A stretch of 9,306 nt of DNA, taken from the NCBI RefSeq assembly GCF_003334255.1, contig NZ_QOWU01000089.1; one strand, given 5' to 3'. Shown in pieces: positions 833 through 9,306 of the stretch (the stretch's first letter is position 1; each line of letters begins with the position of its first letter). The notes below the pieces were generated by a model. That model made no database searches. It was given only the letters and a program-made list of their open reading frames with translations, and was not told the origin of the DNA. The translations under genes were made by a program, and so were the position numbers. Source of the DNA: Escherichia coli. Lineage in GTDB: Bacteria > Pseudomonadota > Gammaproteobacteria > Enterobacterales > Enterobacteriaceae.

Positions 833-4193
<3,361 letters not shown>

Positions 4194-4202
4194 TGTGTTA
4201 AC

Positions 4203-4222
4203 GCCCGGCTTGCCGGGCTTTT
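4203..4222 (+). terminator. Intra-operon stem-loop plus T-tract between fecA and fecB (attenuator-like, rho-independent terminator structure)
   Basis: GCCCGG-CTTG-CCGGGC forms a 6-bp all-GC stem with a tetraloop (4203-4218), followed directly by TTTT (4219-4222), 10 nt after the fecA stop and about 16 nt before the fecB start. It probably gives partial termination that sets the fecA to fecBCDE ratio. Confidence 0.6.
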
Positions 4223-4237
4223 AGCTGGAATGTGATT

Positions 4238-5140
4238 ATGTTGGCATTTATCCGTTTTCTTTTTGCAGGCCTGCTGCTGGTGATCAGCCACGCCTTTGCC
4301 GCCATGGTTCAGGACGAACACGGCACGTTTACACTCGAAAAAACGCCACAACGGATTGTGGTGCTGGAACTCTCGTTCGCCGATGCGCTGGCCGCCGTGG
4401 ACGTCAGCCCGATCGGTATTGCCGACGATAACGATGCAAAACGCATCCTGCCCGAAGTGCGTGCGCACCTGAAACCGTGGCAGTCCGTCGGAACGCGCGC
4501 GCAGCCGAGCCTGGAAGCCATTGCCGCTCTGAAACCAGACCTGATCATTGCCGACAGCAGTCGCCATGCGGGGGTTTACATCGCCTTGCAGCAAATCGCG
4601 CCGGTACTGCTGCTTAAGTCCCGCAACGAAACCTACGCTGAAAATTTGCAATCTGCGGCTATCATCGGCGAAATGGTGGGTAAAAAGCGAGAGATGCAGG
4701 CACGTCTGGAACAACATAAAGAGAGGATGGCGCAGTGGGCCAGCCAGCTTCCCAAAGGGACACGCGTGGCCTTTGGCACATCACGCGAACAGCAATTCAA
4801 CCTGCATACTCAGGAGACCTGGACCGGCAGCGTGCTGGCCTCTCTGGGGCTGAACGTTCCCGCTGCGATGGCGGGTGCGTCCATGCCGTCCATCGGCCTG
4901 GAGCAACTGCTGGCGGTCAATCCTGCCTGGCTGCTGGTTGCCCACTATCGCGAAGAGAGCATTGTTAAACGCTGGCAACAAGATCCGCTCTGGCAGATGT
5001 TAACCGCCGCGCAGAAGCAGCAGGTTGCTTCGGTCGACAGTAACACCTGGGCGCGGATGCGCGGTATTTTTGCTGCAGAGCGTATTGCCGCTGACACGGT
5101 AAAAATCTTCCACCATCAGCCGCTTACCGTTGTGAAATGA
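4238..5140 (+). CDS. fecB: Periplasmic ferric citrate-binding protein FecB (ABC transporter substrate-binding protein), 300 aa from ATG 4238
   Basis: ORF with an N-terminal signal peptide (MLAFIRFLFAGLLLVISHAFA) and a body typical of class III periplasmic siderophore/citrate binding proteins. The ORF track starts at GTG 4232, but ATG 4238 has better spacing to a GGA(A) Shine-Dalgarno-like element at 4227-4230 and gives the 300-aa product. The stop overlaps the fecC start. Confidence 0.93.
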   Translation: MLAFIRFLFAGLLLVISHAFAAMVQDEHGTFTLEKTPQRIVVLELSFADALAAVDVSPIGIADDNDAKRILPEVRAHLKPWQSVGTRAQPSLEAIAALKPDLIIADSSRHAGVYIALQQIAPVLLLKSRNETYAENLQSAAIIGEMVGKKREMQARLEQHKERMAQWASQLPKGTRVAFGTSREQQFNLHTQETWTGSVLASLGLNVPAAMAGASMPSIGLEQLLAVNPAWLLVAHYREESIVKRWQQDPLWQMLTAAQKQQVASVDSNTWARMRGIFAAERIAADTVKIFHHQPLTVVK

Positions 5141-6135
5141 CCGCGATAAAACACCCGGTGCTGCTGTGGGGGCTTCCCGTTGCAGCACTTATTATTATTT
5201 TCTGGCTGAGTCTGTTTTGCTACTCGGCCATTCCTGTTTCCGGAGCAGATGCAACCCGCGCCCTGCTGCCTGGACACACGCCAACGCTACCAGAAGCGCT
5301 GGTGCAAAACCTTCGTTTGCCACGAAGCCTGGTCGCCGTTCTGATCGGCGCAAGCCTGGCGCTCGCGGGCACGCTGCTGCAAACCCTGACCCACAACCCA
5401 ATGGCCTCTCCTTCACTGCTCGGCATTAACAGCGGCGCGGCACTGGCTATGGCGCTTACCAGCGCGCTGAGTCCGACGCCGATTGCAGGCTATTCTCTGT
5501 CGTTCATCGCGGCATGCGGGGGCGGCGTGAGCTGGCTGCTGGTCATGACCGCAGGAGGCGGATTTCGTCATACCCATGACAGAAACAAACTGATCCTCGC
5601 GGGTATCGCGCTGTCGGCCTTTTGTATGGGCCTTACCCGCATCACCCTGCTGCTGGCCGAAGATCATGCTTACGGCATCTTTTACTGGCTGGCAGGCGGA
5701 GTGTCCCACGCCCGCTGGCAGGATGTCTGGCAGCTCTTGCCGGTGGTGGTCACTGCAGTCCCTGTCGTGTTGCTGCTGGCGAATCAACTGAACCTGCTCA
5801 ACCTCAGCGACAGCACCGCCCATACGCTGGGAGTGAACCTGACGAGGCTACGTTTGGTCATCAATATGTTAGTGCTGCTTCTGGTTGGTGCGTGCGTCAG
5901 CGTGGCAGGTCCGGTGGCGTTTATCGGTCTGCTGGTGCCACATCTGGCGCGCTTCTGGGCAGGCTTCGATCAGCGCAACGTACTGCCAGTGAGCATGCTG
6001 CTGGGGGCCACGCTGATGCTGCTGGCAGATGTACTCGCACGCGCGCTGGCCTTCCCCGGAGATCTGCCCGCAGGCGCAGTGCTGGCGCTGATTGGCAGCC
6101 CTTGCTTTGTCTGGCTTGTGAGGAGGCGAGGATGA
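5137..6135 (+). CDS. fecC: Ferric citrate ABC transporter permease FecC (FecCD/BtuC family), 332 aa
   Basis: ORF of 332 aa, highly hydrophobic with multiple predicted transmembrane helices and the FecCD-family signature region (GxxLAxxGxLLQ...NPxAxPxLLG). ATGA overlap with the fecB stop at 5137-5140 and with the fecD start at 6132-6135. Confidence 0.97.
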   Translation: MTAIKHPVLLWGLPVAALIIIFWLSLFCYSAIPVSGADATRALLPGHTPTLPEALVQNLRLPRSLVAVLIGASLALAGTLLQTLTHNPMASPSLLGINSGAALAMALTSALSPTPIAGYSLSFIAACGGGVSWLLVMTAGGGFRHTHDRNKLILAGIALSAFCMGLTRITLLLAEDHAYGIFYWLAGGVSHARWQDVWQLLPVVVTAVPVVLLLANQLNLLNLSDSTAHTLGVNLTRLRLVINMLVLLLVGACVSVAGPVAFIGLLVPHLARFWAGFDQRNVLPVSMLLGATLMLLADVLARALAFPGDLPAGAVLALIGSPCFVWLVRRRG

Positions 6136-7088
6136 AAATTGCGCTGGTTATTTTCATCACCCTTGCCCTGGCGGGCTGTGCGCTGTTATCACTCCATATG
6201 GGAGTGATCCCCGTGCCGTGGCGCGCGCTGCTGACCGACTGGCAGGCCGGACGCGAGCATTATTATGTATTGATGGAGTACCGACTGCCGCGCTTGCTGC
6301 TGGCACTGTTTGTCGGTGCAGCCCTCGCCGTGGCGGGCGTGCTGATACAGGGGATTGTGCGCAACCCTCTGGCATCACCGGATATTCTCGGCGTTAACCA
6401 TGCCGCCAGCCTGGCCTCTGTGGGGGCTCTACTTCTTATGCCGTCACTGCCCGTGATGGTGCTGCCGCTGCTGGCCTTTGCGGGCGGCATGGCGGGGTTG
6501 ATATTACTGAAGATGCTGGCAAAGACCCACCAGCCGATGAAGCTGGCGCTCACCGGCGTGGCGCTTTCTGCATGCTGGGCCAGCCTGACGGATTATCTGA
6601 TGCTCTCGCGCCCACAGGATGTGAACAACGCCCTGCTGTGGCTGACCGGCAGCTTATGGGGCCGTGACTGGAGCTTTGTGAAGATTGCCATCCCGCTGAT
6701 GATTTTATTTCTGCCGCTGAGCCTGAGTTTTTGCCGCGATCTCGACCTCCTTGCACTCGGCGATGCGCGCGCCACCACGCTCGGTGTGTCGGTGCCCCAT
6801 ACCCGATTCTGGGCTTTGTTACTAGCTGTCGCCATGACATCTACCGGCGTGGCCGCCTGCGGCCCGATTAGCTTTATTGGTCTCGTGGTGCCGCATATGA
6901 TGCGTAGCATCACCGGTGGACGTCACCGCAGACTGCTGCCTGTTTCAGCCCTGACAGGTGCGTTGCTGTTGGTGGTTGCCGATCTGCTGGCGAGAATTAT
7001 TCATCCCCCACTGGAGCTCCCGGTTGGCGTGCTGACCGCCATTATCGGTGCGCCGTGGTTTGTCTGGTTGCTTGTGAGAATGCGATAA
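6132..7088 (+). CDS. fecD: Ferric citrate ABC transporter permease FecD (FecCD/BtuC family), 318 aa
   Basis: True start is ATG 6132 (MKIALVIFITLALAGCALL...), preceded by GAGGAGG (6121-6127). The 488-aa ORF in the track (5622-7088) is the same frame read through upstream across fecC, out of frame with fecC. Paralogous to FecC (conserved ...RNPLASPDILG... motif). Confidence 0.96.
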   Translation: MKIALVIFITLALAGCALLSLHMGVIPVPWRALLTDWQAGREHYYVLMEYRLPRLLLALFVGAALAVAGVLIQGIVRNPLASPDILGVNHAASLASVGALLLMPSLPVMVLPLLAFAGGMAGLILLKMLAKTHQPMKLALTGVALSACWASLTDYLMLSRPQDVNNALLWLTGSLWGRDWSFVKIAIPLMILFLPLSLSFCRDLDLLALGDARATTLGVSVPHTRFWALLLAVAMTSTGVAACGPISFIGLVVPHMMRSITGGRHRRLLPVSALTGALLLVVADLLARIIHPPLELPVGVLTAIIGAPWFVWLLVRMR

Positions 7089-7856
7089 ATGACTTTACGA
7101 ACTGAAAATCTGACGGTCAGTTACGGGACAGACAAGGTACTTAACGACGTTTCACTCTCACTGCCAACGGGGAAGATCACCGCCCTGATCGGTCCTAACG
7201 GTTGCGGGAAATCGACGCTGTTAAACTGTTTTTCGCGGCTTTTAATGCCGCAGTCTGGCACCGTATTTCTCGGCGATAATCCCATAAATATGCTCTCATC
7301 GCGCCAGTTGGCCCGCAGGCTTTCGCTGCTGCCTCAGCACCATTTAACGCCAGAGGGGATCACAGTCCAGGAGCTGGTTTCGTATGGTCGTAATCCCTGG
7401 CTGTCACTCTGGGGGCGTCTCTCCGCTGAAGACAATGCACGAGTTAATGTCGCCATGAACCAGACCCGGATCAATCATCTTGCCGTTCGTCGGTTAACCG
7501 AGCTTTCCGGCGGTCAGCGCCAGCGCGCATTTCTGGCGATGGTCCTGGCCCAGAATACGCCCGTTGTATTACTTGATGAGCCAACCACCTATCTTGATAT
7601 CAATCACCAGGTGGACCTGATGCGGTTGATGGGCGAACTCCGGACTCAGGGGAAAACGGTGGTCGCTGTGCTGCACGACCTTAATCAGGCTAGCCGGTAC
7701 TGCGATCAACTGGTGGTAATGGCAAACGGACATATTATGGCGCAAGGCACACCAGAAGAGGTGATGACCCCAGGATTGCTGAGAACAGTATTCAGCGTGG
7801 AAGCGGAAATACACCCCGAGCCGGTATCTGGCAGGCCGATGTGCCTAATGAGGTAG
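7089..7856 (+). CDS. fecE: Ferric citrate ABC transporter ATP-binding protein FecE, 255 aa
   Basis: Walker A GPNGCGKST, ABC signature LSGGQRQR, Walker B VVLLDEPT and H-loop VLHDLN are all present. The start ATG immediately follows the fecD TAA (TAAATG at 7086-7091). Confidence 0.97.
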   Translation: MTLRTENLTVSYGTDKVLNDVSLSLPTGKITALIGPNGCGKSTLLNCFSRLLMPQSGTVFLGDNPINMLSSRQLARRLSLLPQHHLTPEGITVQELVSYGRNPWLSLWGRLSAEDNARVNVAMNQTRINHLAVRRLTELSGGQRQRAFLAMVLAQNTPVVLLDEPTTYLDINHQVDLMRLMGELRTQGKTVVAVLHDLNQASRYCDQLVVMANGHIMAQGTPEEVMTPGLLRTVFSVEAEIHPEPVSGRPMCLMR

Positions 7857-7918
7857 ATTGCACAGGCCGTAAGAACCAAACCACGACTGAATGAAACTGG
7901 ACTGGCGCCAGCAAGCCT

Positions 7919-7943
7919 GTTCAGACTGGGGCTGAACTTTTCC
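7919..7943 (+). terminator. Weak candidate rho-independent terminator downstream of fecE
   Basis: GTTCAG (7919-7924), loop ACTGGGG, CTGAAC (7932-7937), then TTTTCC (7938-7943), about 60 nt after the fecE stop. The stem is short and not GC-rich, so this is tentative. Confidence 0.3.
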
Positions 7944-8194
7944 GGACTCTGAAAGATTACCAATACTCATCGTCCATCCGCTTGCTTTAGGCTGACAGGT
8001 TCATAATCAACGCAAACCAGAGCTGTACAGGCTTGGGCGCGGCTTTCAAACCAGTCGTGATCACGGCAATCAATTTTGAACTCTGCTTAACGGACATTTC
8101 TGTATAACCCTTACGGCAACGAAAAACGCGAAGTTAAAATTTTAGAAACCCAAAAACGTGACATGACTAAGTTTAGATTTCAGGGGGGGAGATC

Positions 8195-8220
8195 AAAAAA
8201 TTTCGCTCTGTGCCAGAGCG
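8195..8220 (-). terminator. Candidate minus-strand hairpin with trailing T-run
   Basis: CGCTCTG-TGC-CAGAGCG is a perfect 7-bp inverted repeat (8204-8220). Read on the minus strand it is followed by AAA then TTTTTT (complement of 8195-8203). It could terminate a minus-strand transcript entering from the right. Unverified. Confidence 0.25.
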
Positions 8221-8413
8221 GACATTCACGGAGCTGGTTCATTACCAATGAGGTTGGGCTTTTGAGGATAAATCAATGATCAGACGCCAACGTAAATCAA
8301 AAGCAACCCTGGAACGGAATTGCTAATCCAGTTTCTGACCATCGATTTTTCTAAAAAGTGTGCGTTTGCTACTACTTAGGTAGGTGCAGCTTTCTTAATC
8401 ACCGGCAGCCACG

Positions 8414-8745: not shown

Positions 8746-9232
<487 letters not shown>

Positions 9233-9239
9233 TAGAGTA

Positions 9240-9275
9240 AGAGGCAGGGCGTAGTCGGACTATTTCCCTGCCTCT
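9240..9275. repeat. Perfect 10-bp inverted repeat (AGAGGCAGGG ... CCCTGCCTCT) with a 16-nt spacer, just beyond the point where IS3-family homology ends
   Basis: Read directly: 9240-9249 AGAGGCAGGG and 9266-9275 CCCTGCCTCT are exact reverse complements, separated by CGTAGTCGGACTATTT. Confidence 0.7.
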
Positions 9276-9306
9276 CCTCCCCGAACCGGACGTGCACCTT
9301 TCAGCG

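Follow-up and report, generated by a model that had tools for sequence, protein, structure and literature searches.

A hairpin between fecA and fecB of Escherichia coli as a probable leaky terminator and protector of the fecA mRNA 3' end

Leaky intrinsic terminators inside operons act as attenuating 'valves' between cistrons, as in rpsU-dnaG-rpoD. The fec operon of Escherichia coli holds an element of this general kind: a GC stem-loop followed by a U-run lies between cistrons of one promoter, read-through is partial, and the upstream gene is expressed more highly. It departs from such terminators in its U-tract, which has just four U followed by AGCU, and we know of no regulatory input on fec read-through. 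A second point of comparison is malE-malF, reportedly the paradigm of REP/BIME-mediated differential mRNA stability since the work of Newbury and colleagues in 1987. REP sequences share a conserved palindrome of ~35 nt and are scattered through the genome in many copies. By analogy with malE-malF, the fec hairpin would be a stable intercistronic structure right behind the strongly expressed gene that opens a transport operon, where it would shield the upstream mRNA from 3'-5' decay. The orthologous spacers of Enterobacter, Kluyvera, Citrobacter and a Klebsiella plasmid carry REP-like palindromes without U-runs. The E. coli hairpin itself was considered as a REP member and rejected: it is single-copy, 16 nt long, followed by a U-run and unlike E. 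coli REP sequences such as that in the Term-seq row at 25802.

The protective stem-loops of Rho-dependent transcripts offer a third comparison. Dar & Sorek 2018 (PMC6061677) reported that stable stem-loops set steady-state 3' ends with or without U-tracts, that U-less hairpins define these ends through exonuclease trimming, and that the two forms interconvert in evolution via their U content. The fec hairpins are similar in that a stem-loop sets the 3' end and the U content varies; unlike the Rho-dependent stem-loops, the E. coli fecA site has a proximal U-run and is not among the Rho-dependent regions listed by Adams et al. 2021.

The closest described system is the element itself. Enz, Braun & Crosa 1995 (Gene 163:13-18), as summarised in a review by one of its authors (Braun 2022, PMC9249621), described a hairpin 3' of fecA that lowers fecBCDE transcripts and accompanies a stable 2.5-kb fecA mRNA; it is the same element at the same locus, without any difference. 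According to the review, the 2.5-kb fecA mRNA was detected in Northern blots and required ferric citrate, FecIR and low iron, the polycistronic fecABCDE mRNA was seen by RT-PCR only, and the hairpin 3' of fecA is the stated cause of this pattern. The same text says both that a 6-kb transcript is 'trimmed' to the more stable 2.5-kb fecA mRNA and that the hairpin 'downregulates transcription'. The hairpin and its effect are thus already known, reported in 1995 and followed by mapping of the 3' end in 2021, so the element opens no new question; the first-pass annotation had called it known biology in outline, which agrees with the 1995 work as the review relates it. Its remark that the element is rarely annotated holds for RefSeq records, but not for the literature and the Term-seq tables. 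Only mildly new is the cross-species pattern, in which the hairpin appears fixed in position and varied in sequence, with an optional U-tract.

The fecA-fecB spacer and its RNA 3' end

The window, by which we mean the whole 9,306-nt stretch of DNA analysed, was identified through the RefSeq annotation of identical or near-identical E. coli records as the fecIRABCDE ferric-citrate locus of E. coli. The 1 kb around the hairpin matches strain MS7163 at 100% identity, and 2749 E. coli records match it at 99% or more. Its features are as follows.

311-832, + strand: fecI (RefSeq annotation)
829-1782, + strand: fecR (RefSeq annotation)
1869-4193, + strand: fecA, TonB-dependent ferric-dicitrate receptor, the cistron upstream of the hairpin, with an mRNA that ends there (ORF list, RefSeq)
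4191-4193, + strand: fecA stop codon TGA (sequence)
4194-4237, + strand: fecA-fecB intercistronic spacer, 44 nt (sequence, RefSeq)
4203-4208, + strand: hairpin 5' arm GCCCGG (sequence, folding, covariation in relatives)
4209-4212, + strand: hairpin loop CTTG (sequence, folding)
4213-4218, + strand: hairpin 3' arm CCGGGC (sequence, folding, covariation)
4219-4222, + strand: T-run TTTT (sequence)
4219-4226, + strand: short U-tract and release region, TTTTAGCT, recognised as a T-run; its last base is the Term-seq 3' end
4227-4231, + strand: putative, weak fecB Shine-Dalgarno GGAAT, inferred from its place ~7-8 nt 5' of the ATG; adjoins the mapped 3' end (4226)
4238-5140, + strand: fecB, periplasmic binding protein gene, the first poorly expressed downstream cistron (ORF list, RefSeq; ATG at 4238)
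5137-6135, + strand: fecC (RefSeq annotation)
6132-7088, + strand: fecD (RefSeq annotation)
7089-7856, + strand: fecE (RefSeq annotation)

Between the two genes the sequence runs TGA (4191-4193), TGTGTTAAC, GCCCGG, CTTG, CCGGGC, TTTT, AGCTGGAATGTGATT and ATG (4238). The first-pass annotation had described a 6-bp all-GC stem, a tetraloop and TTTT in the 44-nt gap, and every detail of this matches the sequence; the gene identities and the 44-nt gap agree with RefSeq. The stem consists of six G-C/C-G pairs (4203-4208 with 4213-4218) and the stem-loop has an energy of -11.2 kcal/mol; in composition, stem length and loop size it has the form of an intrinsic terminator (GC-rich, stem of ~5-14 bp, loop of 3-8 nt). 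In RNA the loop reads G(CUUG)C, the context of the stable CUUG tetraloop. A seventh pair is possible between the C and G of the loop, and relatives whose hairpin is 18 nt long have a full C-G pair there. In intrinsic terminators the stem is directly followed by 7-8 U-rich nt. The U-tract here was accepted by the scan; of its 8 nt, 5 are U, four of them proximal, and its distal half is not U-rich. From a tract of this sequence a weak or leaky terminator would be expected. A d'Aubenton-Carafa-type terminator score was positive, at +9.7.

In a consensus scan the fecA-fecB hairpin, on the + strand, was the sole terminator-like site of the window with all-GC pairs, and no promoter-like site that could serve fecB was found in the spacer. 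The reverse complement forms the same stem and has no T-run. The Rfam covariance models gave no match at 4194-4237, even at E <= 1. A longer helix outside the stem, between the fecA stop region and the Shine-Dalgarno region of fecB, was tried and discarded as weak and G.U-rich (z = -0.96). At the position of the putative fecB Shine-Dalgarno, orthologous spacers have CTGGAG or CAGGAG.

Taken alone, the E. coli hairpin goes only modestly beyond chance. An equally stable perfect hairpin occurs in 2.1% of length-matched (50-nt) coding windows of the same locus, the MFE of the spacer is lower than that of 95.7% of dinucleotide shuffles (p = 0.043), and in a 61-nt context the MFE z is only -0.96. 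Nine further perfect hairpins of the window's + strand equal or exceed it in stability, though with long loops and G.U pairs. What speaks for a real element is therefore context, cross-species comparison and experiment: the hairpin, T-run and intergenic position combined, recurrence across species and the published experiments.

Within E. coli the element hardly varies. The 75 nt around the hairpin match K-12 MG1655 exactly and are identical in 2707 of 2762 E. coli records; the median count is 1 place per genome, in every case between fecA and fecB, and being single-copy and nearly invariant it is therefore no dispersed repeat. The one variant inspected, from strain 1332KP, has GCTCGG as its 5' arm. 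This C->T change turns a C-G pair into a G.U wobble, so that pairing is kept in a weaker hairpin (-8.2 vs -11.2 kcal/mol).

A 3' end has been mapped at the hairpin by Term-seq. Adams et al. 2021 (PMC7815308, supplementary file 1, sheet LB 0.4) list a 'primary' fecA 3' end at MG1655 4514320(-), in a 61-mer that includes the hairpin; a scripted mapping placed this end at window 4226, in ...CCGGGCUUUUAGCU-3', 8 nt past the last base of the stem. For this mapping the table was calibrated on sgrS and thrL, which put the 3' end at base 51 of each 61-mer. The distance lies within the ~7-9 nt past the stem at which an intrinsic terminator has its 3' end in vivo (literature data, our own mapping). Neither fecA nor fecB appears in the table of bicyclomycin-sensitive Rho regions of the same study, in which their expression was possibly low, and the SMRT-Cappable-seq and TERMITe supplements contained no data on fec termination efficiency or full-length fec transcripts.

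The same sample has a further Term-seq 3' end, classed as ORF-internal, at window 5193 (+; MG1655 4513353(-); PMC7815308), 56 nt into fecC and preceded by GGGGGCTTCCCGTTGCAGCACTTATT, with a Rho score of 1.09 ('No'). Some RNA therefore passes the fecA hairpin, and position 5193 could be a second point of attenuation or of stalled decay. Another 3' end from this work, also classed as internal, lies at window 322 (+; MG1655 4518224(-)), 12 nt into fecI, and may reflect promoter-proximal termination, pausing or decay.

Hairpins in the fecA-fecB spacers of other Enterobacterales

One genome per species was scanned with a FecB alignment (A1), which gave 46 loci. A fecA homologue precedes fecB in 40 of them, with spacers of 43-225 nt; together with the window and two Klebsiella plasmids these made up the 43 spacers compared. 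Nearly all contain a strong hairpin. Against shuffled sequences the spacer MFE had a median z of -2.3, with p <= 0.05 in 27 of the 43. Over the spacers, a median of 0.9% of length-matched coding windows held a perfect hairpin of equal stability. The hairpin sequences are not conserved. Loops range from 3 to 13 nt, and at least nine types were found.

GCCCGG-N4-CCGGGC followed by TTTT: E. coli, a Klebsiella plasmid and Pseudenterobacter
GCCGGGC-N4-GCCCGGC: Photorhabdus and Enterobacter sp. BIGb0383 with a T-rich tail, Pectobacterium without the tail
Longer-looped versions: Rahnella and Erwinia
REP-like palindromes: Enterobacter soli, Klebsiella sp. BIGb0407 and Silvania
Stems of 12-17 bp joined to REP-like sequence: Kluyvera, Citrobacter, E. 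cloacae and plasmid pKCTC2242
Other long stems: Klebsiella michiganensis, K. spallanzanii and K. indica
Double hairpins: Raoultella
An 11-bp stem: Xenorhabdus
An ERIC-like insertion with a hairpin: Citrobacter sp. MGH106

A T-rich tail with a terminator-like score is found in only ~15-17 of the 40 species, 11 of them Photorhabdus, and in ~23-25 of the 40 the hairpin has no U-run; the conserved function is therefore not canonical intrinsic termination everywhere. The conserved feature would be the hairpin and the U-tract an option, which fits a combined partial terminator and 3'-end stabiliser, and in other genera exonuclease protection may be the main mode. Comparing the MFE of the two strands revealed no significant asymmetry across the spacers (22 vs 21, p = 0.18), and so no evidence of a + strand structure at the RNA level; strand specificity has to be drawn from the T-run and the mapped RNA end.

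To follow the base pairs through evolution we used 14 sequences of the class with a 7-bp stem, trimmed and structurally registered (alignment A4), in place of a MAFFT alignment of hairpins and flanks (A2), which had mis-registered the near-palindromic arms. In A4 all 98 of 98 cells are in standard pairs, and both sides have changed in three of the seven pairs: C-G/G-C at pair 4 and C-G/U-A at pairs 3 and 7. Covariation scored 0.294, against 0.140 for shuffles, a level that 0 of 500 shuffled sets attained, and in slid registers only 24-57% of the cells were paired. Base pairs are thus kept by compensatory changes, as in a structured RNA, within a small set of mutually related sequences that were picked for folding and so carry an ascertainment bias.

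The REP-like spacers (e.g. GTAGGCCGGGTAAGCGCAACGCCACCCGGC) have stems of 12-17 bp and no T-run, and belong to Enterobacter, Kluyvera, Citrobacter and the Klebsiella plasmid pKCTC2242 (L004 at 2943-3000, L005, L006, L007, L010, L011, L044 and L002). In pKCTC2242 fecB is truncated after ~120 nt. Within the fetched loci, that is, only ~7 kb searched per genome, the REP-like motifs are confined to the spacers. The spacer of Citrobacter sp. MGH106 (L012, 2776-3000), at 225 nt, contains an ERIC/IRU core-like CCCCTGGAGCTTACACAAGTAAGTGACTGGGGTGAG and an 11-bp hairpin; its likeness to ERIC/IRU was judged against the E. coli Term-seq row at 127845. The labels REP and ERIC are presumptive, given for resemblance to E. 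coli examples.

Several loci depart from the common arrangement. In Pantoea (L039 and L042) the fecA stop and the fecB start abut or overlap, with spacers of -1 and 2 nt, and there is no intercistronic hairpin. In Pectobacterium zantedeschiae and P. aroidearum (L020 and L023, 2880-3003) fecB has no preceding fecA; ~50 nt of a degraded fecA 3' end remain, 3' of a divergently oriented 540-aa ORF. The hairpins of these two fecA-less loci persist in weaker form (-8.3 and -7.4 vs -13.5 to -15.0 kcal/mol), which may suggest relaxed selection, though the two loci probably represent a single evolutionary event. In Pectobacterium sp. PL152 (L046, 2815-3000) the fecA frame stops ~110 nt before the conserved C-terminal coding sequence, which is resumed in another frame, suggesting that fecA is frameshifted or that the sequence contains an error.

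A broader model can be drawn from this comparison, to which we give somewhat less than an even chance. Across Enterobacterales, selection would keep some stable hairpin after fecA and not one terminator sequence. The hairpin would act as a modular valve for receptor-to-transporter stoichiometry, repeatedly rebuilt or replaced (as a minimal GC hairpin with or without a U-run, a REP-like or ERIC-like element, or double hairpins), switching between intrinsic termination and Rho- or exonuclease-dependent definition of the 3' end, becoming weaker on loss of fecA (P. zantedeschiae, P. aroidearum) and being absent in Pantoea. The conserved hairpin with its optional U-tract would make a modest example of terminator turnover in evolution.

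Termination, 3'-end protection and alternative explanations

For E. coli we consider it probable that the hairpin, which lies inside fecABCDE directly after fecA, works both as an intrinsic (Rho-independent) terminator of the leaky kind and as a protector of the RNA 3' end. Polymerase coming from the FecI-dependent fecA promoter would transcribe the GC stem and the short U-tract (UUUUAGCU), and many complexes would release their RNA ~8 nt past the stem, at window 4226. Because the U-tract is short, with four proximal U and a non-U distal half, a fraction would read through into fecBCDE. The hairpin, now at the 3' end, would shield the fecA mRNA from 3'-5' exonucleases, and read-through RNA, once cut or degraded further on, would be shortened to that same hairpin. 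The outcome would be an abundant, stable 2.5-kb fecA mRNA, scarce fecBCDE mRNA, and receptor in large excess over the ABC transporter. The hairpin with its U-run, the 2.5-kb fecA mRNA, the polycistronic RNA seen by RT-PCR only and the 3' end at stem + 8 are sequence features or published results; how termination and trimming or stabilisation share the work, and why the terminator would leak, is inferred. Expression of fecBCDE needs read-through because the promoter of fecABCDE is described solely upstream of fecA (PMC9249621).

Such a hairpin explains how abundant FecA, an outer-membrane receptor that is also a signal sensor, and little FecBCDE can come from one FecI-dependent promoter. Marking it would be of use in annotation, in reading fec RNA-seq and reporter data (fecA-lacZ vs fecB-lacZ) and in engineering, and the effects of fec loci on virulence and cefiderocol susceptibility lend it some current relevance.

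Intrinsic terminators release RNA ~8 nt past the stem, and it is the four proximal U that matter most. Four proximal U after a G(CUUG)C-capped stem, together with a 3' end at stem + 8, thus argue for genuine termination. A 3' end ~8 nt past the stem, however, is also compatible with an exonuclease that stalls at the stem, and this counts against our preferred reading; the 'trimmed' 6-kb transcript of PMC9249621 would likewise make processing, not termination, the main route. That wording and the many U-less hairpins argue for exonuclease protection as a contributor, and since more than half of the relatives have the hairpin without a U-run, protection of the 3' end from exonucleases is probably part of the mechanism. 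The first-pass annotation had proposed partial termination, with fecA expressed above fecBCDE from one FecI-dependent promoter. The Northern and RT-PCR results, as given in PMC9249621, and the 3' end at 4226 (PMC7815308) support this proposal; pure partial termination is less certain, as exonuclease protection probably has a share in the effect.

Carried to its extreme, the processing argument would make the hairpin purely a 3'-end stabiliser or processing barrier without any termination. Polymerase would then read into fecBCDE, the downstream part of the 6-kb transcript would be lost through endonuclease cleavage and PNPase/RNase II, or through Rho termination further downstream, and decay would halt at the hairpin and leave a stable fecA mRNA, like REP elements in malEFG. 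The short E. coli U-tract speaks for this, as do the strong U-less hairpins in more than half of the relatives, some of them REP- or ERIC-like palindromes, and the finding that hairpins of this kind set 3' ends by exonuclease trimming (Dar & Sorek, PMC6061677). We nevertheless regard it as unlikely: four proximal U are present, the 3' end lies 8 nt past the stem, where intrinsic terminators release, no Rho-dependent region has been reported at fecA or fecB (PMC7815308), and PMC9249621 has the hairpin 'downregulate' transcription. More improbable still, and by a wide measure, is that the palindrome is neutral, the spacer being a permissive place that gathers GC-rich palindromes or selfish repeats (REP, ERIC), while the difference between fecA and fecBCDE would come mainly from translation efficiency and segmental mRNA decay. 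The weak fecB Shine-Dalgarno, the slight significance of the E. coli hairpin alone, the REP- and ERIC-like elements that other genera have in the same spacer, the Pantoea loci without any spacer and the weaker hairpins that survive in fecA-less Pectobacterium would all suit a neutral palindrome; against it stand an RNA 3' end mapped exactly where expected, a fecA-sized mRNA, compensatory changes with no pair broken, and a single-copy sequence nearly invariant in ~2750 E. coli genomes.

The inverted repeat might also be read at the level of DNA, as an operator-like protein-binding site and not an RNA structure. It is a perfect 6+6 repeat, and across species the + strand has no MFE advantage over the - strand; both points speak for such a site. 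The arms, however, vary between species with pairing kept, including by G.U wobbles (as in E. coli 1332KP), the loops range from 3 to 13 nt, and the T-run and the RNA 3' end are strand-specific, so that we give a DNA operator almost no credence. We know of no regulator that binds the fecA-fecB inverted repeat.

Other observations in the window

On the + strand 3' of fecE (7857-8400) no strong terminator-like site directly follows the gene. The nearest terminator candidates on that strand, at 8054 and 8361, are both weak, and the T-run of a 9-bp hairpin at 8202-8222 lies on the - strand. At the end of the window (9232-9306, - strand) there is a partial match to the Rfam Intron_gpII model (group II intron, region of domains V-VI), which at 37.9 bits falls short of the gathering score of 40 (E = 1e-4) and is cut off by the window edge. 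It falls in a region annotated in strain MS7163 as a degraded IS3-family transposase pseudogene, which would fit an IS element carrying the remnant of an inserted group II intron.
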